NCBI GenBank assembly: GCA_034190465.1
Contig: JAXINV010000018.1
Coordinates: 1-49,247 of the forward strand
Source of the DNA: Candidatus Asbonarchaeum danakilense
GTDB lineage: Archaea; Nanohalarchaeota; Nanosalinia; Nanosalinales; Nanoanaerosalinaceae
DNA length: 49,247 bases
Direction: 5' to 3'
In this document: piece by piece, positions 1 through 49,247 of the stretch
Numbering within the stretch: the first letter of the stretch is position 1
Layout: every line of letters begins with the position of its first letter
Position numbers and translations under genes: made by a program
The notes under the pieces: generated by a model
The model's database searches: none
Told to the model about the DNA's origin: nothing
What the model saw: the letters and a program-made list of their open reading frames with translations, nothing else

Positions 1-11
1 CCGGCAGGGAA

Positions 12-245
12 CGGGTGGCGAGAAGATCTCTGATCTTCGATCCGCTCGGACCCATTCTGTAAAGCGGACCCTTCCTTTAGCAATCACAGCACCGTTCGGT
101 GCTGTTCGAACCTGCTTCCTCGTGAAGCAGGTGAGGTCCATCAGGTTCCACTCTCGCTATCGCTCGAGTCCGGTTCGGTTCTTCTTTGCCTGCATGAACG
201 TTCCTGCTGGAACTGTCGCCTGCTTCCTGGCAACCGGTGGCGAAA
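12..245 (+). repeat. Hairpin-rich tRNA-3'-end repeat/anti-repeat region (parent tRNA probably just left of window)
   Basis: 36-54 TTCGATCCGCTCGGACCCA looks like a tRNA T-loop, T-stem and acceptor 3' strand. It is preceded by an anti-copy (12-21) and hairpin GAAGATC-TCT-GATCTTC (22-38). Further hairpins at 86-105 and 110-132. Shares motifs with the Leu and Pro arrays. Confidence 0.6.
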
Positions 246-30898: not shown

Positions 30899-30981
<83 letters not shown>

Positions 30982-31200
30982 CTTTGCAGTGCTTTCGCGA
31001 GTGATTCGAACCTGATCACCGCCAGGTGAGATGTTCGAATCCTCGCCCTCGCATTTTCCTCCGGAAAATGCTCGGAACCGCCATCTGCCTGCGGCAGGAA
31101 GGCGGTGTCTCGCACTTTGGAACGGTCTTGTTTCCAGGAGGGTAATGAACGGCTTTCGCTCACGCTGTTCGATCAACCGATGTCTCGCGCTTTTTCGAGA
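30982..31200 (+). repeat. tRNA-Leu 3'-end repeat/anti-repeat hairpin array
   Basis: Exact 21-nt copy GTTCGAATCCTCGCCCTCGCA at 31033-31053, anti-copy at 30997-31012, decayed copies CTCGCACTTTG (31109-31119) and TCTCGCGCTTT (31183-31193). Confidence 0.85.
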
Positions 31201-45448: not shown

Positions 45449-46963
45449 ATGCTGCCGGGATTCTTGAACATGAACATCGTCGCGATTCTGCTGCTTGTGG
45501 CGGGTGTCGCGGCCCTGCTGTGGCGCGACAGGGAGAAGATCGAGCGGCATTCGATCCTGATCGTGCGCAGGACGGAGCACGGCATCGAGTTCCTGGACCG
45601 CGTGGCCAAACGCGCGCCACGGCTGTGGAAGGTCTGGTCGACGCTCGGTGTGATCGGTTCGTTCGTCGTGATGGGCTTCATCGTCTACTTCCTGTTCAAG
45701 AACGGTCTCAAGGTCCTGATGAGCGCCCAGGCGGTCCCTGCGGTCGGGCTGCTGCTGCCGACGGTCGGCGGCCAGGCGTCGATGGGTCCTGGCTACTTCC
45801 TGGTGCCGTTCTGGTACTGGATCGTCGGGATTTCGACGGTGGCGATCTTCCACGAGATGATGCACGGTGTGATCGCCCGGAACGAGGGCTTCCCGATCAA
45901 GTCTGTCGGCTGGTTTGTGCTGGGTATCCTTCCCGGGGCGTTCGTGGAGCCGGAGGGCGAGGAGATGCTGCCCGATGCCTCGGACGATGACGAGGAGGAA
46001 GCTGACGATGATAAAGATGAGGACGCTGATGATGACGAGGACGATGACGGCCCGCTCCGCGTTGAGGGGCCGTGGGGCGACGGTGACTGGAAGTCGAAGC
46101 TGCGCGTGCTGGCTGCCGGCAGCGCGGCCAACCTGACGATCGCTCTGCTGATCTTCGGCGTGATGCTGGGTATGACGACGACGGCGCACGGCCAGCGCGA
46201 GATCAAGGGTTTGTACGAGTACAACGGCGCTGAGATCGTCTCGATTTACAATAACACTGCTGCGGATCGGGCGGGACTGAAGCCGGGGATGGTGGTGGCC
46301 TCAATGGACGGCCACACGGTCACGGATGTGCGCGACTTCCTCCGGATCGGTTCGAACTTCTCGGTGAATGAGACGGTGTGGATGGCCGGGACGTACAACG
46401 GCTCGCGGTTCAATATCTCGGCGGAGATCGAGACGCGGCAGGTCCGGAACTTCACGTACCGTCCTGCCCCGATCGACCCGCTGCTTGTGGCGCTGGAGCG
46501 GCGTGTGCCGGGCACGATCGAGAACTATGCGGCGTACAATGACTGGGTCGTCGGCGAGGATATACGGACGGAGCTGGAGCGCTGGCGGTGGATCCGGCGG
46601 AACTATGAGGGCATGGATCAGCGCGCATCGGAGCGGATCGATGCGCTGGAGGCGAAGCTGGAGGATGGTCCTGAGCCGTTCCTCGGTGTGGGTATCGTGT
46701 CGGCGACGTCGGTCAAGGCCGGCATGGCGCCGCTGGTGCCGATCGCGGAGGTGCTGCTGAAGCTGTTCTTCTTCATGGTGATGATCCATGCGGGCATCGG
46801 TGCGGCGAATATGATGCCGATCAAGCCGCTGGACGGTGGCTGGATGCTGTCGACGGTGATGGAGCGGATCAGACCGGCGTGGCAGCGCCCTGTGGTTCGG
46901 TTCGCGACGCTGGGGACGCTCTTCCTGTTTGCGGTGAACATCGCGGTGCCGTTGCTGTTCTGA
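45449..46963 (+). CDS. site-2 protease (M50) with PDZ-like domain
   Basis: HEMMH, GAFVEP, AAGSAAN and NMMPIKPLDGG motifs. AADRAGLKPG PDZ-like segment. Start at 45449 or 45470. Confidence 0.93.
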   Translation: MLPGFLNMNIVAILLLVAGVAALLWRDREKIERHSILIVRRTEHGIEFLDRVAKRAPRLWKVWSTLGVIGSFVVMGFIVYFLFKNGLKVLMSAQAVPAVGLLLPTVGGQASMGPGYFLVPFWYWIVGISTVAIFHEMMHGVIARNEGFPIKSVGWFVLGILPGAFVEPEGEEMLPDASDDDEEEADDDKDEDADDDEDDDGPLRVEGPWGDGDWKSKLRVLAAGSAANLTIALLIFGVMLGMTTTAHGQREIKGLYEYNGAEIVSIYNNTAADRAGLKPGMVVASMDGHTVTDVRDFLRIGSNFSVNETVWMAGTYNGSRFNISAEIETRQVRNFTYRPAPIDPLLVALERRVPGTIENYAAYNDWVVGEDIRTELERWRWIRRNYEGMDQRASERIDALEAKLEDGPEPFLGVGIVSATSVKAGMAPLVPIAEVLLKLFFFMVMIHAGIGAANMMPIKPLDGGWMLSTVMERIRPAWQRPVVRFATLGTLFLFAVNIAVPLLF

Positions 46964-47153
46964 CGATGAGCGCTTCGTGGGAGAGGGTGCCCTCGTGTGA
47001 CGCCGTTATGTCTTATCGAGGGATAGGGCCGTAACTTATAAGCCTGGACGTTGCAGGTACCGGTGCGTAACGTGGTGGTGTGCCTGGTTCCTCGTTTGAG
47101 GTGACGGGAACGGAAGGTCCTCGAATCTTCCAACCACCGGAATGTCAGTAAAT

Positions 47154-47202
47154 GGCGGGGTGGTGGACTGGTCGAACCGCTGTGTTCGGCCATCATCACC
47201 GC
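47154..47202 (+). repeat. upstream copy and anti-copy of the tRNA-Pro 5' end
   Basis: GGCGGGGTGGTG at 47154-47165 equals the first 12 nt of the tRNA. CATCATCACCGC (47191-47202) is its G:U-tolerant complement, enclosing hairpin GGTCGAAC/GTTCGGCC. Confidence 0.7.
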
Positions 47203-47218
47203 GTGTTGAGTGTCATGT

Positions 47219-47291
47219 GGCGGGGTGGTGTAGTGGACTATCATCGCAGCCTCGGGCGCTGTGGACCCCGGTTCAAATCCGGGCCCTGCCA
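47219..47291 (+). tRNA. tRNA-Pro(CGG)
   Basis: GGCGGGG/CCCTGCC-A acceptor, GCAGC-CTCGGGC-GCTGT anticodon arm, CCCGG-TTCAAAT-CCGGG T-arm. Confidence 0.94.
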
Positions 47292-47293
47292 TC

Positions 47294-47604
47294 TCACGTT
47301 CGTTCGCTGACAAGCCCGTGTTTTGAACCTTGAGCATGGTCTGTGATCTGCGACCGGTTCAAATCCGGGCCCTGCCATCCGACTGGTTACGCTCGGTCGA
47401 CACGCAAGAGCGGGTTCGCAAGCGAACCCACTGAAAGGCTTGTGGATTTGAACCCCAAGAAAATCTTTGATTTTCGAGTTCAAATCCGGGCCCTGCCATC
47501 GCTTCGCTCGGCAGCTGGCGGATTTTCACACTCCGGTTCTCAGTCGAGAACCTCCGAGGTACAAATCCGGGCCCCGAGAACTGCCGCCTGCTTCGTTTGG
47601 CAGG
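47294..47604 (+). repeat. tRNA-Pro 3'-end repeat/anti-repeat hairpin array
   Basis: Copies of the tRNA 3' end at 47354-47379 (26 nt exact), 47478-47500 (23 nt exact) and 47558-47575 (degenerate). Anti-copies at 47314-47329, 47444-47454 and 47510-47525. Confidence 0.9.
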
Positions 47605-47705
47605 TGTTCGGATCTGGAGGAGGTGCTGACTACGCCGGGTTCTGCCGCCGCCGGGCCGATGTTACGCGTATATTTATTAACCTGCGCGGGGAAGTGTTAC
47701 CCTGT

Positions 47706-49127
47706 ATGGACGACTGGCGACGTGGTTCCGGGTTGATCGTTCTGGCGGTGCTTCTGTTCGCTGCTCCTGCGGCGGCACAGAGCGGGTTCGATGTCACTGT
47801 CAGCAGCGAGGATACGACGGTCCGCCCGGCGCAGGGTGAGACAGCCAAGTTCCACATCACGGTCACGAACACCGCGGAACAGCAGCAGCGGTTCCGTGTG
47901 TCCTATATAACCGGGACAGCGACCGATCCGGCATGGTACTACTTGGAGAACCCGTTCATCACGCTGGAGCCGAACGAGACCGAGATGACCACCCTGTATG
48001 CTACGCCAGACATGACAGCGCAGGCAGGGACGATGGGGCCCCGTATCATCGTGTTCCCGCTGGATGACCCTGACAACCGGTTCAACAAGCTTGTGAGTTT
48101 CTCCGTCATCCGTGACACGAACCTGGAGATCATCTCGTTCGAAGGCCCGCAGGCCATGTACAAGCCTGGCGAGACAGTCAACGTCTCGATGACGGTCAAG
48201 AACGTGATCCAGCGAGACATCGCGGCTAACCGGTATCAGGTCGTGATGACGGTCAACGGCGACCAGACGACACGCCCTGTCCCGTCCATCGAGGCAGGTG
48301 AGACAGAGCGTATCACCGCAGCCCTGGAGCTGGAGAGCTACCGCGCAGGTATCTACGACCTCACGGTCGAGATCCGCGAGATCGGGGGTGAGGTCCACAG
48401 CACACAGCAGGCGAAGATCGAGGTAACGAAGGAGCGGAGGCTTGGCTACGATCATACTTCTTCCAAGTCGTTCCTGAGTTCGTCGAAGACTGTGAGGGTC
48501 ACGAACACAGGCAACGTCGTCGTGGAGGACCTGAACGTCTCGAAGTCGGCCGCATGGTACATTGATCCTTTTGTGTCGTTCCCCCAGGAGCCGGACCAGA
48601 TCGTGAACGTGGACGGTGAGCGGAAGTACGTCTGGACAGTGGAACGCCTTGAACCAGGCGAGTCCGTCTCGTTCTCCTACACGGTCAGCTACTGGTCGCT
48701 GGTGCTGGTGCTGTTGATCCTGGTCGCGGCGGGTGCGGTGCTCGTCCGCAGGTTCCGCTCGGTGACGCTCGTGAAGTCGGGCCGGCGCTCCGGTGACCGC
48801 CTGTCGATCCATCTCCGTGTGAAGAACAACACGGGCTCCAGGATCGAGGACGTGGAGGTCGAGGACTTCGTGCCCGGCATCGCCTCGCTGATCGAAAAGT
48901 TCGACTCCCGCAGCCCGGAGAAGATCCAGAGCACGGACGACGGCACGAAGATGGTCTGGAAGCTGGGCATGATGGAGCCGGGCGAGGAACGCATCATCAC
49001 GTATAAGGTCAAACCCCGTGTCCAGGTCGAGGGCTACATCTCACTGCCGGAGGCGGAGGTCACGTACGAGAAGAAGGGCCAGGAAAAGGCGCGCGAGTCC
49101 CACCCGATCTCCGCTGACTTCAGCTGA
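47706..49127 (+). CDS. membrane-anchored surface protein with CARDB/NPCBM-like Ig domains and a cytoplasm-side Ig-like domain
   Basis: Signal peptide ...FAAPAAAQ, repeated 'ITVTNT..LEPNET / YKPGETVNV / LEPGES', TM LVLVLLILVAAGAVLV. Start at the ATG at 47706. Confidence 0.85.
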   Translation: MDDWRRGSGLIVLAVLLFAAPAAAQSGFDVTVSSEDTTVRPAQGETAKFHITVTNTAEQQQRFRVSYITGTATDPAWYYLENPFITLEPNETEMTTLYATPDMTAQAGTMGPRIIVFPLDDPDNRFNKLVSFSVIRDTNLEIISFEGPQAMYKPGETVNVSMTVKNVIQRDIAANRYQVVMTVNGDQTTRPVPSIEAGETERITAALELESYRAGIYDLTVEIREIGGEVHSTQQAKIEVTKERRLGYDHTSSKSFLSSSKTVRVTNTGNVVVEDLNVSKSAAWYIDPFVSFPQEPDQIVNVDGERKYVWTVERLEPGESVSFSYTVSYWSLVLVLLILVAAGAVLVRRFRSVTLVKSGRRSGDRLSIHLRVKNNTGSRIEDVEVEDFVPGIASLIEKFDSRSPEKIQSTDDGTKMVWKLGMMEPGEERIITYKVKPRVQVEGYISLPEAEVTYEKKGQEKARESHPISADFS

Positions 49128-49193: not shown

Positions 49194-49247
49194 CCCTCCC
49201 TAGCTCAGGCTGGCAGAGCGGTCGCCTGTAGAGCGACTTGTCCCCCG
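49194..49247 (+). tRNA. tRNA-Tyr(GTA), truncated by window end inside the T-arm
   Basis: CCCTCCC (C1, archaeal Tyr identity), GCTC/GAGC D-stem, GTCGC-CTGTAGA-GCGAC anticodon arm with no intron. Confidence 0.9.

Follow-up and report, generated by a model that had tools for sequence, protein, structure and literature searches.

tRNA genes are favourite landing sites of integrating viruses and plasmids, and for tyrosine integrases the classic overlap region is the 7-nt T-loop, with the inverted T-stem on either side. How introns and splits arose in archaeal tRNA genes has long been an open question. At a few bacterial loci, tandem units are found downstream of a tRNA, as in the tyrT distal repeats (rtT) of E. 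coli, 178-bp units that each end in a copy of the tRNA 3'-end, contain no inverted T-loop copy and have no known function. Attachment sites that are folded single strands are found in integrons (attC) and CTX phage, where they form imperfect palindromes of ~60–140 nt with a bulged base and a variable tip. The attC geometry is R''-L''...L'-R', with the GTT core at the outer 3'-end of the hairpin.

Accumulation of mobile DNA at tRNA genes is described in passages on CIMEs, where accretion is in tandem and elements without an integrase keep their att sites (PMC5704250), and in passages on tycheposon islands, which contain partial tRNAs and successive integrations (10.1101/2020.12.28.424599). tRNA introns, too, have been proposed to originate by integration (PMC3293823). 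No published description of the hairpin units reported here was found, the literature covering tRNA gene fragments, tycheposons and CIMEs. The passages considered from a paper on nanohaloarchaeal viruses mention spindle-virus integrases and no attachment sites, which its supplements may list (10.1101/2025.02.15.638363).

The DNA analysed here (the window) is a stretch of 49,247 nt from a nanohaloarchaeal genome (G000; 1.2 Mb, 92% complete), and all window features given below are on the forward strand.

The tRNA-Pro(CGG) locus

A tRNA-Pro(CGG) gene was called by ARAGORN at 47218–47293, and the live gene, in which CCA is not encoded, occupies 47219–47291 (Rfam RF00005, 51.3 bits, E 6.9e-10). 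Apart from this tRNA, no Rfam family was matched at E<=1 between 46900 and 47900. Behind the gene, the presence of short hairpin units without coding capacity was confirmed, each of which ends with a copy of the tRNA tail. A repeat search placed a 26-nt family (CCGGTTCAAATCCGGGCCCTGCCATC) at 47268, 47354, 47475 and 47556, with identities of 100, 100, 92 and 73% and spacings of 86, 121 and 81 nt. The positions and spacings reported in the initial annotation (47354, 47478 and 47558; 86, 121 and 81) agree with these to within 2–3 nt, and the copies decay with distance from the tRNA (100, 92 and 73%) as it had stated. The 21-nt core of the tRNA-Pro repeat, with <=3 mismatches allowed, was found three times in the window, compared with 0.00 expected from 100 shuffles.

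In unit 1 (47292–47379), a leader is followed by a bulged inverted copy of the T-arm (GCCCGTGTTTTGAACC, 47314–47329), an inner hairpin that is weak and, at 47354–47379, 26 nt identical to the tRNA-Pro 3'-end. Unit 2 (47380–47500), delimited from sequence reading, the repeat family and folding, begins with an intron-like leader made up of CGACTGGTTACGCTCGGTCGACACGCAAG and a hairpin (CGGGTTCGC/GCGAACCC), followed by an inverted T-loop (GGATTTGAACC, 47444–47454), the conserved palindrome GAAAATCTTTGATTTTC (GAAAATC-TTT-GATTTTC, 47459–47475) and a copy of tRNA positions 53–73 plus 2 nt (47478–47500). Unit 3 (47501–47581), recognised from the repeat family and its fold, is older and decayed, and includes an inverted copy (GGCAGCTGGCGGATTT, 47510–47525), a hairpin (GGTTCTC-AGTC-GAGAACC, 47535–47552) and a degenerate tRNA-end copy with 73% identity (47556–47581). 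Direct reading of the array tail (47582–47626) revealed a hairpin module (CCTGC-ttcgtttg-GCAGG, 47587–47604) and the T-loop-like GTTCGGATC (47606–47614). A match to the hairpin module (28 nt, 89%) was found in the final unit of the array behind tRNA-Val(GAC) on contig C9, and the tail may be a still older, unrecognisable unit, the fifth at this locus.

The three inverted copies and the inner hairpins of units 2 and 3 had all been listed in the initial annotation and are present. A further unit located upstream of the tRNA (47154–47217), detected as the separate repeat family D2, had been missed. It is a mirror image of the downstream units, with a copy of tRNA positions 1–12 (GGCGGGGTGGTG, 47154–47165), a small hairpin (CGAAC, 47173–47177, with GTTCG, 47184–47188), an inverted copy that has one bulge and two G.T pairs (CCATCATCACCGC, 47190–47202) and a 16-nt leader that reaches tRNA-Pro. 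The same upstream unit recurs before a second tRNA-Pro(CGG) on contig C11 and before tRNA-Pro(GGG) on C31.

The units were folded as single DNA strands and each compared with 200 shuffles. Unit 2 was more stable than every shuffle (z -3.6; 0/200 as stable), and a single shuffle was as stable as the upstream unit (z -3.0; 1/200) or as unit 3 (z -2.9; 1/200). For unit 1, z was -1.8 and 10 of the 200 shuffles were as stable. As an independent 236-nt contig spans 47264–47499 in two public runs, the array is not an assembly artefact, which the initial annotation had named as an outcome that would refute it.

Units at other tRNA genes

The other tRNA gene in the window, tRNA-Leu(GAG) (30899–30981), is followed by a single unit (30983–31053) that includes an inverted T-arm with a bulged T (GAGTGATTCGAACC), a hairpin (TCACC-gcca-GGTGA) and, at 31033–31053, 21 nt identical to the tRNA end. 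The tail of another array is found at the start of the window (1–54), with the palindrome GAAGATC-tct-GATCTTC (22–38) and CCGCTCGGACCCA (42–54), which corresponds to positions 62–73 of tRNA-Val(CAC/TAC). The first bases of the window run on from the end of contig C36, on which tRNA-Val(CAC) is located. Several contigs of the G000 bin end within units.

Of the 46 tRNA calls in G000, 42 were analysed, the remaining four having no recognisable T-loop. A 21-nt copy of the tRNA's own 3'-end was found <=400 nt downstream in 14 of the 42 (22 copies in total, two of them underlain by scaffold gaps, without which 13 calls remain), and no such copy was found on the upstream side or the opposite strand of any of the 42. 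The tRNA's own 5'-end is copied in the mirror-image arrangement, upstream of eight of the 42 calls (one of the eight underlain by a scaffold gap) and downstream of none. Repeat periods are mostly about 75–120 nt (range 53–141), and the spacers of 55–95 nt contain no ORF. In the 3' units the order is a short leader, an inverted copy of the T-loop region, a small palindrome and a direct copy of positions 53–73, and the 5' units are the mirror image of this.

The pattern GAAAATCNNNGATTTTC N1-8 GTTCRAATC was searched for in one genome of each of 185,579 species, and was found in 37 stretches (40 matches), most of them from records titled nanohaloarchaea or uncultured archaea. A tRNA call was located <=200 nt upstream in 31 of the 40 matches, the tRNAs being those for Lys, Pro, Phe, Met, Leu, Ala, Thr, Tyr, Gly and Arg. 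The 21-nt copy is identical to positions 53–73 of the upstream tRNA itself in 21 of these 31, although the pattern fixed only 9 of the 21 positions. One conserved subtype, nearly all of whose occurrences are in nanohaloarchaeal MAGs, is found behind many different tRNAs. The palindrome-plus-copy module of unit 2 also recurs behind many tRNAs in nanohaloarchaeal genomes, and the leader motif of unit 2 is seen again where tRNA introns begin in relatives. The units are spread across both the genome and the lineage, and the test set in the initial annotation, whether other tRNAs and relatives have this architecture, thus speaks for a genuine phenomenon. The Pro array is best read as one instance of a lineage-wide class of non-coding hairpin cassettes at tRNA ends in Nanohaloarchaeota.

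Gain, loss and apparent movement of units

Contigs C29 and C53 from the same bin share 99.5% identity over 3.9 kb, but tRNA-Phe is followed by two units (u1 and u2) in C29 and by u2 alone in C53. The difference is an indel of one 82-nt unit bounded by a 21-nt repeat. In run X3, which is from a related strain in another study, Pro unit 1 is identical, but the tRNA and unit 1 each precede different units. Unit 3 is missing at the duplicate locus on C11, where identity with contig C5 stops at 47499. Units are gained, lost and reshuffled between strains, and the unit number, proposed for comparison in the initial annotation, does vary.

The spacer of Pro unit 1 was found to be homologous to tRNA-Phe u1 on C29 (23 nt, 95.7%, E 1.8e-4), and leaders are common to units of different tRNAs. 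Chimeras were also identified, in which tRNA-Pro is followed by a unit with a tRNA-Arg tail, and tRNA-Lys(TTT) by a Lys(CTT)-like tail. These sequence relationships suggest that units have moved between tRNAs, which favours mobile cassettes.

A polarity like that of the Pro array is seen in the Val(GAC) array, where the copies have 0, 1 and 3 mismatches with increasing distance. Live and displaced ends differ at Leu(CAA), with CCGGC in the live end and CCGAC in both copies, and also at Arg(TCG) in L083. Most copies begin at G53, 'type C' units copy only 61/62–73, and an insert of ~50 nt is located exactly after C61 in three displaced copies, with breakpoints at both edges of GTTCRAATC.

The C29/C53 indel, being bounded by a direct repeat, could have been made by homologous recombination or slippage, and one array in G015 contains the same unit twice. 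Both would fit an origin without any mobile element, by local slippage or by unequal crossing-over of the tRNA end with a repeat that happens to lie downstream, which has been proposed for the tRNA-linked repeats of E. coli. However, adjoining units have unrelated spacers, the same spacer types are found behind different tRNAs and in different genera, and the inverted copy and the mirror-image 5' units would be left unexplained. This origin is considered very unlikely.

Search for a recombinase

No recombinase is encoded in the window, in keeping with the initial annotation, which had seen no integrase there. In G000, no matches were found to PF01867 (Cas1), PF00078 (reverse transcriptase), PF01797 (Y1/HUH transposase) or PF00239 (resolvase domain). 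On these grounds, a casposon (no Cas1-family casposase found), retro-copying of the tRNA in the manner of a SINE, REP/REPIN or IS200/IS605-type hairpins and serine-recombinase att scars, respectively, were rejected, the copies behind tRNA-Pro also being followed by genomic TC or T and not by CCA. Of the two enzyme types for which the initial annotation had suggested a genome-wide search, no Y1/HUH enzyme and a single tyrosine recombinase were found. The latter, the only PF00589 match in G000, is encoded on contig C45, is patchily distributed and is tied to no unit. It scored 40 bits against the XerA/integron-integrase model (cut-off 220), and no tRNA-Pro-like site was found on C45.

A tyrosine recombinase was detected at E<=1e-5 in 25 of 41 genomes, and none was found in unit-bearing genomes such as G004, G015 and G017, which are incomplete. 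Integrase genes are located next to tRNA genes in relatives, and at four of the six loci examined an integrase-match frame of 409–496 aa starts just downstream of the tRNA. In G001 and G040, tRNA-Pro is immediately followed by N-terminal pieces of an integrase of the G000 type. No second tRNA-end copy was found near the tRNA-adjacent integrases of the complete relatives G024, G026 and G018, or of G001, and thus no full-size element with such a unit at its boundary was found. Unit matches were also absent from 2.9 million viral contigs in a pattern scan and from phage and plasmid collections. No enzyme could be linked to the units, which counts against mobile cassettes.

The tRNA-adjacent integrase genes, and the truncated ones behind tRNA-Pro, would also be expected if the units were ordinary scars, left when full-size integrase-bearing viruses or plasmids at the tRNA were eroded by deletion to attL- and attR-proximal stubs. 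An AT-rich, repeat-bearing stretch of ~300 nt inside the tRNA-Phe array is consistent with this, and tRNA gene fragments are treated as integration footprints in passages of two studies (10.1101/2022.07.05.498093; 10.1101/2020.12.28.424599). However, independent erosion at dozens of loci should lead to a wide size range and no common structure, whereas the sizes are tight, the first copy beginning 51–64 nt past the tRNA in 10 of 13 tRNAs in G000, which random erosion of large elements would not yield. The unit architecture and modules are conserved across genera, and no coding remnants were seen among the units read. Eroded elements are therefore an improbable source of the units.

Possible roles in RNA

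The same hairpin modules were also found within spliced tRNA introns, just before the 3' exon, and behind protein genes beside T-runs, which would fit a role in host RNA too. The units could be host-encoded transcribed structures that are locally copied and kept by selection, either as pre-tRNA leader and trailer hairpins involved in termination, end-processing or stability, or as attachment-site decoys. Decoys, like processed small RNAs, were also among the possibilities raised in the initial annotation. Palindrome and leader modules are conserved across families and tRNA identities, and perfect GAA..TTC hairpins are ~13-fold enriched at tRNA loci (29 of 66 in 3.4% of the genome). A T-run often ends the arrays, and at several loci the 5' unit reads as lying between a promoter-like TATA box and the tRNA, so that it would be transcribed. 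Inserts have entered displaced copies and left the live tRNA untouched, as would be expected of a decoy.

However, units are patchy even for one tRNA, with a 3' copy at only 3 of 11 tRNA-Pro loci of relatives, and as about two thirds of the G000 tRNA calls are without a unit, units cannot be needed for maturation. Distal copies decay, and units are indel-polymorphic within the population. The sense-strand mismatches in 48 units (five G.T versus four A.C, and 11 others) show no clear excess of G.T. No Rfam family matches the units, no bulge-helix-bulge (BHB) splice motif was found above shuffles, and a scan for consensus terminators gave no sites in 46900–47800. We consider a host-encoded structure fairly unlikely.

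The covariation between repeats and anti-repeats that the initial annotation had called for proved weak. In an alignment of 23 sequences from one well-sampled subfamily, the paired percentage of inverted and direct copies was reached by 158 of 500 shuffles, and the consensus fold of a MAFFT alignment of 14 mixed units, in which left arms were misaligned, contained no pairs. Duplexes between cognate copies in G000 had an energy of -21.0 kcal/mol, compared with -16.6 kcal/mol for non-cognate copies (sd 4.8), a modest advantage. The weak covariation and the small energy difference both count against mobile cassettes.

Three further candidates were rejected. A spliceable intron was looked for by a strict BHB scan of eight tRNA-plus-array loci, in which counts were near the shuffled means in most and no consistent in-register pair was found, with the proviso that the strict motif was present at the anticodon-loop 5' splice site in four of eight control introns (with a plausible 3' site too in Asn-GTT and Ser-TGA only), so relaxed motifs could be missed. 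At the tRNA-Tyr locus, all BHB matches fall within a G-run. A C/D-box guide reading of the inverted T-loop copy was not retained, as a CTGA box was seen by eye after the inverted copy in one unit only; the C/D-box fifth-base rule points to position 57, not 56, for this copy. For a MITE or IS with terminal inverted repeats and target duplication, the acceptor sequence that follows the right arm should also be found on the left of the inverted copy, but a unique leader is located there.

Proposed mobile cassettes at the T-loop

We see an even chance that the units are non-autonomous cassettes of small size, for which recombination takes place in the tRNA T-loop, the 3'-end being regenerated and older copies being pushed downstream. 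An element of this type was among the interpretations offered in the initial annotation, and that part is favoured, whereas its CRISPR-like label fails. Integration would most probably occur by site-specific recombination with the crossover in the T-loop. Fresh 3' strands of the T-stem and acceptor would come with the incoming DNA, and because of this the tRNA would stay intact, while the old 3'-end would be shifted downstream along with the cassette body. Repeated rounds would lead to a polarised array with decaying distal copies.

Since no gene is present in the cassettes, their movement must depend on factors acting in trans, and the likely helpers are integrases of viruses or plasmids aiming at the same tRNA genes. 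Pairing between the inverted and direct copies would let a folded single strand or a cruciform restore the tRNA target in double-stranded form, and this folded form may be the one that recombines. The kind of enzyme that acts is inferred, as is an origin of the units by recombination and not by slippage. The mobile form would be a hairpin or a mini-circle, and for the latter a double-stranded circle of ~80 bp is physically implausible.

A wider possibility, which we regard as doubtful, is that Nanohaloarchaeota have an undescribed recombination system docking at the T-loop, which is conserved in all tRNAs, by which single-stranded hairpin cassettes that imitate the end of the tRNA gene would be inserted and excised as in a cargo-free integron. 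Such a system would also seed introns where a cassette enters the gene itself, the old tails would act as decoy landing pads guarding single-copy tRNA genes from viruses, and it could perhaps extend to small-genome DPANN and CPR generally.

Small structured inserts, bounded by copies of the gene's own ends and variable between strains, are found at a third of the tRNA genes in this lineage. These units break metagenome assemblies at tRNA genes, and the partial tRNA sequences can mislead tRNA annotation.

Comparison with known systems

The array resembles a CRISPR array in having direct repeats, unique spacers and polarity. However, CRISPR repeats are numerous, near-identical and regular, with spacers alike in length, whereas here four copies of decaying identity are irregularly spaced (86, 121 and 81 nt), the repeat is the end of the adjoining tRNA and differs at every tRNA, mirror images are found at 5'-ends, and no Cas1 was found in the 92%-complete genome.

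In an att duplication at a tRNA gene, the direct repeat is the 3' part of the tRNA, from the loop to the gene end, and is located downstream of an intact tRNA, as was found here. The insert is likewise present or absent between strains with breakpoints in the repeat (C29 versus C53; run X3), but an integrase gene and cargo are not found between the repeats. In the passages that describe CIMEs and tycheposon islands, the repeats are also the tRNA 3' part, the tRNA is regenerated, newcomers push older elements outward and decayed partial tRNAs pile up. However, the elements in those passages span kilobases and carry genes or remnants, whereas the units here are short and free of ORFs, with a conserved architecture of inverted copy and palindrome, mirror-image 5' units and no linked integrase. 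The rtT units of E. coli are similar in their tandem arrangement downstream of a tRNA and in each ending in a copy of its 3'-end, but here a third of the tRNA genes are involved, at both ends and across a whole archaeal lineage, and an inverted T-loop copy is present.

The units resemble the attC and CTX sites in their length, imperfect palindromy, bulged base and variable tip. As in those sites, structure is more conserved than sequence, and a polarised stack is located beside a fixed site. The geometry is reversed relative to attC, with GTTC at the loop-proximal end of the outer stem, and the repeat reaches ~10 nt past the paired region into the acceptor strand. The integron also differs in that the cassettes here have no ORF, the window has no recombinase and no IntI-type integrase was identified. 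The order within the units (direct copy, short segment, inverted arm, loop, direct copy) would be expected after integration of a single-strand hairpin.

With archaeal tRNA introns and split tRNAs, the differences are that the live tRNA is complete without splicing and that the copies decay. The structured leader of a unit precedes a piece of 3' exon, as do the leaders of split tRNAs, and modules found in the units recur in the canonical introns of the same genomes. A link between integration and intron origin can therefore be tested directly, in organisms that are now in co-culture.

The tRNA-Pro locus

The tRNA-Pro(CGG) gene of the window (47219-47291, forward strand; called by ARAGORN, Rfam 51.3 bits) was found to be followed on the same strand by three copies of its 26-nt 3' end, starting at 47354, 47475 and 47556 (identity 100, 92 and 73%; spacings 86, 121 and 81 nt). 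The repeat consists of the T-loop, the T-stem and acceptor 3' strands, the discriminator and 2 further bases, and the 21-nt core of the tRNA-Pro end occurs three times in the window, compared with none in 100 shuffles. The initial annotation described an anti-repeat and an inner hairpin in each spacer, and an imperfect inverted T-loop copy and a hairpin are indeed present in each; units 1, 2 and 3 have more stable folds than shuffled sequence (z -1.8, -3.6 and -2.9). A mirror-image 5' unit had been overlooked. It lies upstream of the tRNA on the forward strand, where tRNA positions 1-12 are repeated at 47154-47165; a small hairpin follows, and then the inverted copy (47190-47202; fold z -3.0). 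The surrounding genes, encoding a class I lysyl-tRNA synthetase, an M50 peptidase and a CARDB/DUF11 surface protein, were unremarkable. An independent 236-nt contig from two public runs spans 47264-47499; the array is therefore not an assembly artefact, the outcome that the initial annotation had named as refuting it.

Structure of the units

The 3' units open with a leader of 2-60 nt, followed by an inverted T-loop copy, a palindrome of 5-8 bp, usually with GAA at its start and TTC at its end, and a direct copy that mostly begins at G53. In the source genome bin (G000), the inverted copy often reaches into the T-stem 3' strand with a single base bulged out; examples are GCGAG-T-GATTCGAACC (Leu) and GCCCG-T-GATTTGAACC (Pro and Phe). 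In 5' units, the order is copy, palindrome, inverted copy, leader and tRNA. The 7-nt T-loop is bounded by G53 and C61. In some units the copy is limited to positions 61/62-73 (unit 3 of Val(GAC); Arg(CCG) on contig C1), and displaced copies behind Lys(TTT), Leu(TAG) and Val(CAC) carry a ~50-nt insert exactly after GTTCRAATC, which together point to a second breakpoint immediately after C61. Tyrosine integrases that target tRNA genes usually have the T-loop as their overlap region and the T-stem halves as inverted core sites.

Copies of tRNA ends in the genome

The G000 bin (1.2 Mb, 81 contigs, 92% complete, 1.3% contamination) includes the window as contig C5; genomes of its relatives range from 0.6 to 1.7 Mb. 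ARAGORN, run with introns allowed, gave 46 calls, of which the tally covered 42, 4 being left out as their T-loop was unrecognised. At least one 21-nt copy of the tRNA's own positions 53-73 was found within 400 nt downstream of 14 of the 42 calls (22 copies in total), and none upstream or on the opposite strand of any of the 42. The tRNA's own 5' end was repeated upstream in 8 of the 42 and downstream in none. Three copies proved to be artefacts of 100-N gaps with overlapping sides, namely that of tRNA-Ser(TGA), the first of two tRNA-Arg(CCG) copies on C1 and the tRNA-Tyr 5' copy. Their removal left real 3' copies at 13 calls and real 5' copies at 7, so that the architecture does recur at other tRNAs, a point on which the initial annotation had staked its reading. 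The first 3' copy starts 51-64 nt past the tRNA in 10 of the 13.

The other tRNA of the window, tRNA-Leu(GAG), carries one unit. Window positions 1-54 are the tail of a tRNA-Val(CAC) array that starts on contig C36, and the sequence from base 55 onward is identical to that behind tRNA-Val(TAC) on C23 (region 1-190). At its other end (49194-49247), the window holds the first 55 nt of tRNA-Tyr(GTA), and the whole tRNA-Tyr lies beyond the 100-N gap (G000:C5:49348-49423); as the two sides of this gap overlap, the seeming 5' copy is a product of the assembly. An overlap of this kind was also seen at tRNA-Arg on C1 and tRNA-Ser(TGA) on C17. Contig ends of the bin fall at tRNA arrays in several cases, suggesting that the units break the metagenome assembly.

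Gain, loss and reshuffling of units

Unit number, which the initial annotation had proposed to compare between strains, was found to vary. Contigs C29 and C53 of the bin share 99.5% identity over 3.9 kb, and C29 carries tRNA-Phe, unit 1 and unit 2 where C53 has tRNA-Phe and unit 2, an 82-nt difference flanked by the 21-nt repeat. In a related strain from another study's run, unit 1 of the Pro array is unchanged, different units with leaders starting ATCGGAGATATGG and ATCGAAGATATGCC follow both the tRNA and unit 1, and one contig fuses a tRNA-end copy straight to 47663. A 3' copy was present at 3 of 11 tRNA-Pro loci of relatives and absent from 8. Spacers of adjacent units are unrelated to each other, Pro unit 1 and Phe unit 1 have homologous spacers, and leaders are common to units of different tRNAs and of different genera. 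Some units end in the tail of another tRNA, with Pro followed by an Arg tail plus Arg flank, and Lys(TTT) by a Lys(CTT)-like tail.

In record L080 of the species-wide pattern scan (match 2064-2095), tRNA-Pro(CGG) is followed by a unit with the direct copy and downstream flank of tRNA-Arg(TCG), meaning that either two tRNA loci recombined in the T-loop or the metagenome contig is chimeric. The tRNA-Phe array includes a ~300-nt AT-rich stretch (G000:C29, ~250-520 nt downstream of tRNA-Phe; also on C53) with two 86-nt repeats and many GATATC motifs, after which come tails of a different tRNA. This stretch looks like a remnant of foreign DNA.

A second tRNA-Pro(CGG) on contig C11 has the same 5' unit and units 1-2 (G000:C11:36652-36998, matching window 47153-47499). 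The block common to the two loci is only 347 nt (99.4% identity), extends precisely from the outer 5' copy as far as the third 3' copy, has unrelated flanks and, in the source runs, has ~2x the depth of either flank. We infer that it was moved or converted whole between the two loci, the end copies serving as homology. The bin yielded no tRNA-Pro(TGG) call, and one of the two isoacceptor loci may have converted the other.

Distribution in the lineage

Like units, sought in relatives as the initial annotation had advised, were found behind tRNA-Met, Pro, Phe, Leu and Asn in three families within the order. One subtype with a near-invariant palindrome, GAAAATCTNNGATTTTC, was used for a pattern scan of 185,579 species, one genome each, which returned 37 stretches with 40 matches, mostly in records titled nanohaloarchaea or uncultured archaea. 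A tRNA was called within 200 nt upstream of 31 of the 40, and the 21-nt copy was identical to that tRNA's own end in 21 of these, with 1 mismatch in 4, 2 in 1, 3 in 4 and 7 in 1. Two more had an uncalled tRNA end in the flank and one was the reverse reading of another. The six lacking tRNA context came from records titled Woesearchaeota, Methanosarcinales and Bacteroidota bacterium (one each) and from two unclassified archaeal bins (three). A 3 kb contig titled Thermoplasmatales archaeon (L070) holds a typical unit in which a GAAAATC palindrome is combined with the tRNA-Thr(TGT) end, copied exactly, indicating either mis-binning or a wider range of the units.

Introns and other hairpins

Long canonical introns (31-254 nt) interrupt many G000 tRNA genes (e.g. 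C35:6546-6682, C13:18068-18213 and C12:23777-24057); plain ARAGORN found only 19 tRNAs and the Rfam model 24. These introns are made of the same small hairpin modules as the arrays. A palindrome of the GAAAATCC/GGATTTTC type lies a few bases ahead of the 3' exon in 3 of 19 introns examined, others carry the array-type hairpins CGGTTCGC/GCGAACCG and GAAGATC/GATCTTC, and the Pro unit 2 leader CGACTGGTTACGCTCGGTCGACACGCAAG also opens introns of tRNA-Thr, Arg, Ala and Val in relatives. The units themselves were rejected as spliceable introns, as strict BHB motif counts were in line with those of shuffles and no pair restored a tRNA.

Perfect GAA..TTC hairpins cluster at tRNA loci (29 of 66 in 3.4% of the genome), with a few clusters behind protein genes. 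Those immediately behind protein-coding genes at G000:C11:9070-9190 and C11:28540-28700, some with T-runs after them, may be terminators or REP-like repeats.

Recombinases and integration sites

The genome-wide search for a tyrosine recombinase or HUH enzyme suggested by the initial annotation yielded one tyrosine recombinase and no Y1 transposase; Cas1, resolvase and reverse transcriptase were likewise not found in this 92%-complete bin, where absence is no proof. The sole tyrosine recombinase (457 aa, contig C45) adjoins a Cdc6 gene. Its homologues are patchily distributed, occurring in 15 of 41 genomes, some in multiple copies and some with stop codons, a pattern typical of a mobile-element integrase and not of a housekeeping Xer. 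Truncated N-terminal integrase fragments with 53-56% identity to it lie directly behind tRNA-Pro in a sister species (G001:C2:81154-81504) and in another relative (G040:C39:282-572), and an integrase gene begins just past a tRNA gene in 4 of 6 relatives' loci fetched. The 3' ends of tRNA genes are thus real integration sites in the order. No full-size element bounded by a unit was found at the integrase loci looked at in relatives, and no unit-like sequence in viral, phage and plasmid collections.

Origin of the units and comparison with known systems

The units are of tightly limited size and conserved architecture, unrelated spacers have arrived, units are reshuffled from strain to strain and spread across tRNAs, and breakpoints lie at both T-loop edges; these features fit mobile cassettes driven by recombination better than they fit eroded proviruses or a fixed host structure. 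A role of the units as host RNA, compatible with mobile cassettes, is kept alive by weak covariation, the lack of an enzyme tied to the units, the implausibility of an 80-bp duplex circle, and the hairpin modules common to units, introns and intergenic sites. A wobble test on the sense strand of 48 units gave near-equal numbers of G.T and A.C mismatches (5 and 4).

The units may resemble integron attC sites, CTX-type hairpin integration and E. coli tyrT repeats; they do not have the attC geometry. Literature searches found no published description of these hairpin units. Among known systems, they come closest to integrative elements that duplicate their att sites and accrete in tandem at tRNA genes, accounts of which include integrase-less CIMEs and tycheposon islands (PMC5704250; 10.1101/2020.12.28.424599). 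Archaeal tRNA gene fragments are described as usually taken for integration footprints (10.1101/2022.07.05.498093), and an origin by integration has been proposed for tRNA introns (PMC3293823). Unlike the integrative-element accretions, the units found here are miniature and gene-free, include an inverted-copy hairpin, have 5' mirror units and occur at about one third of tRNA genes.
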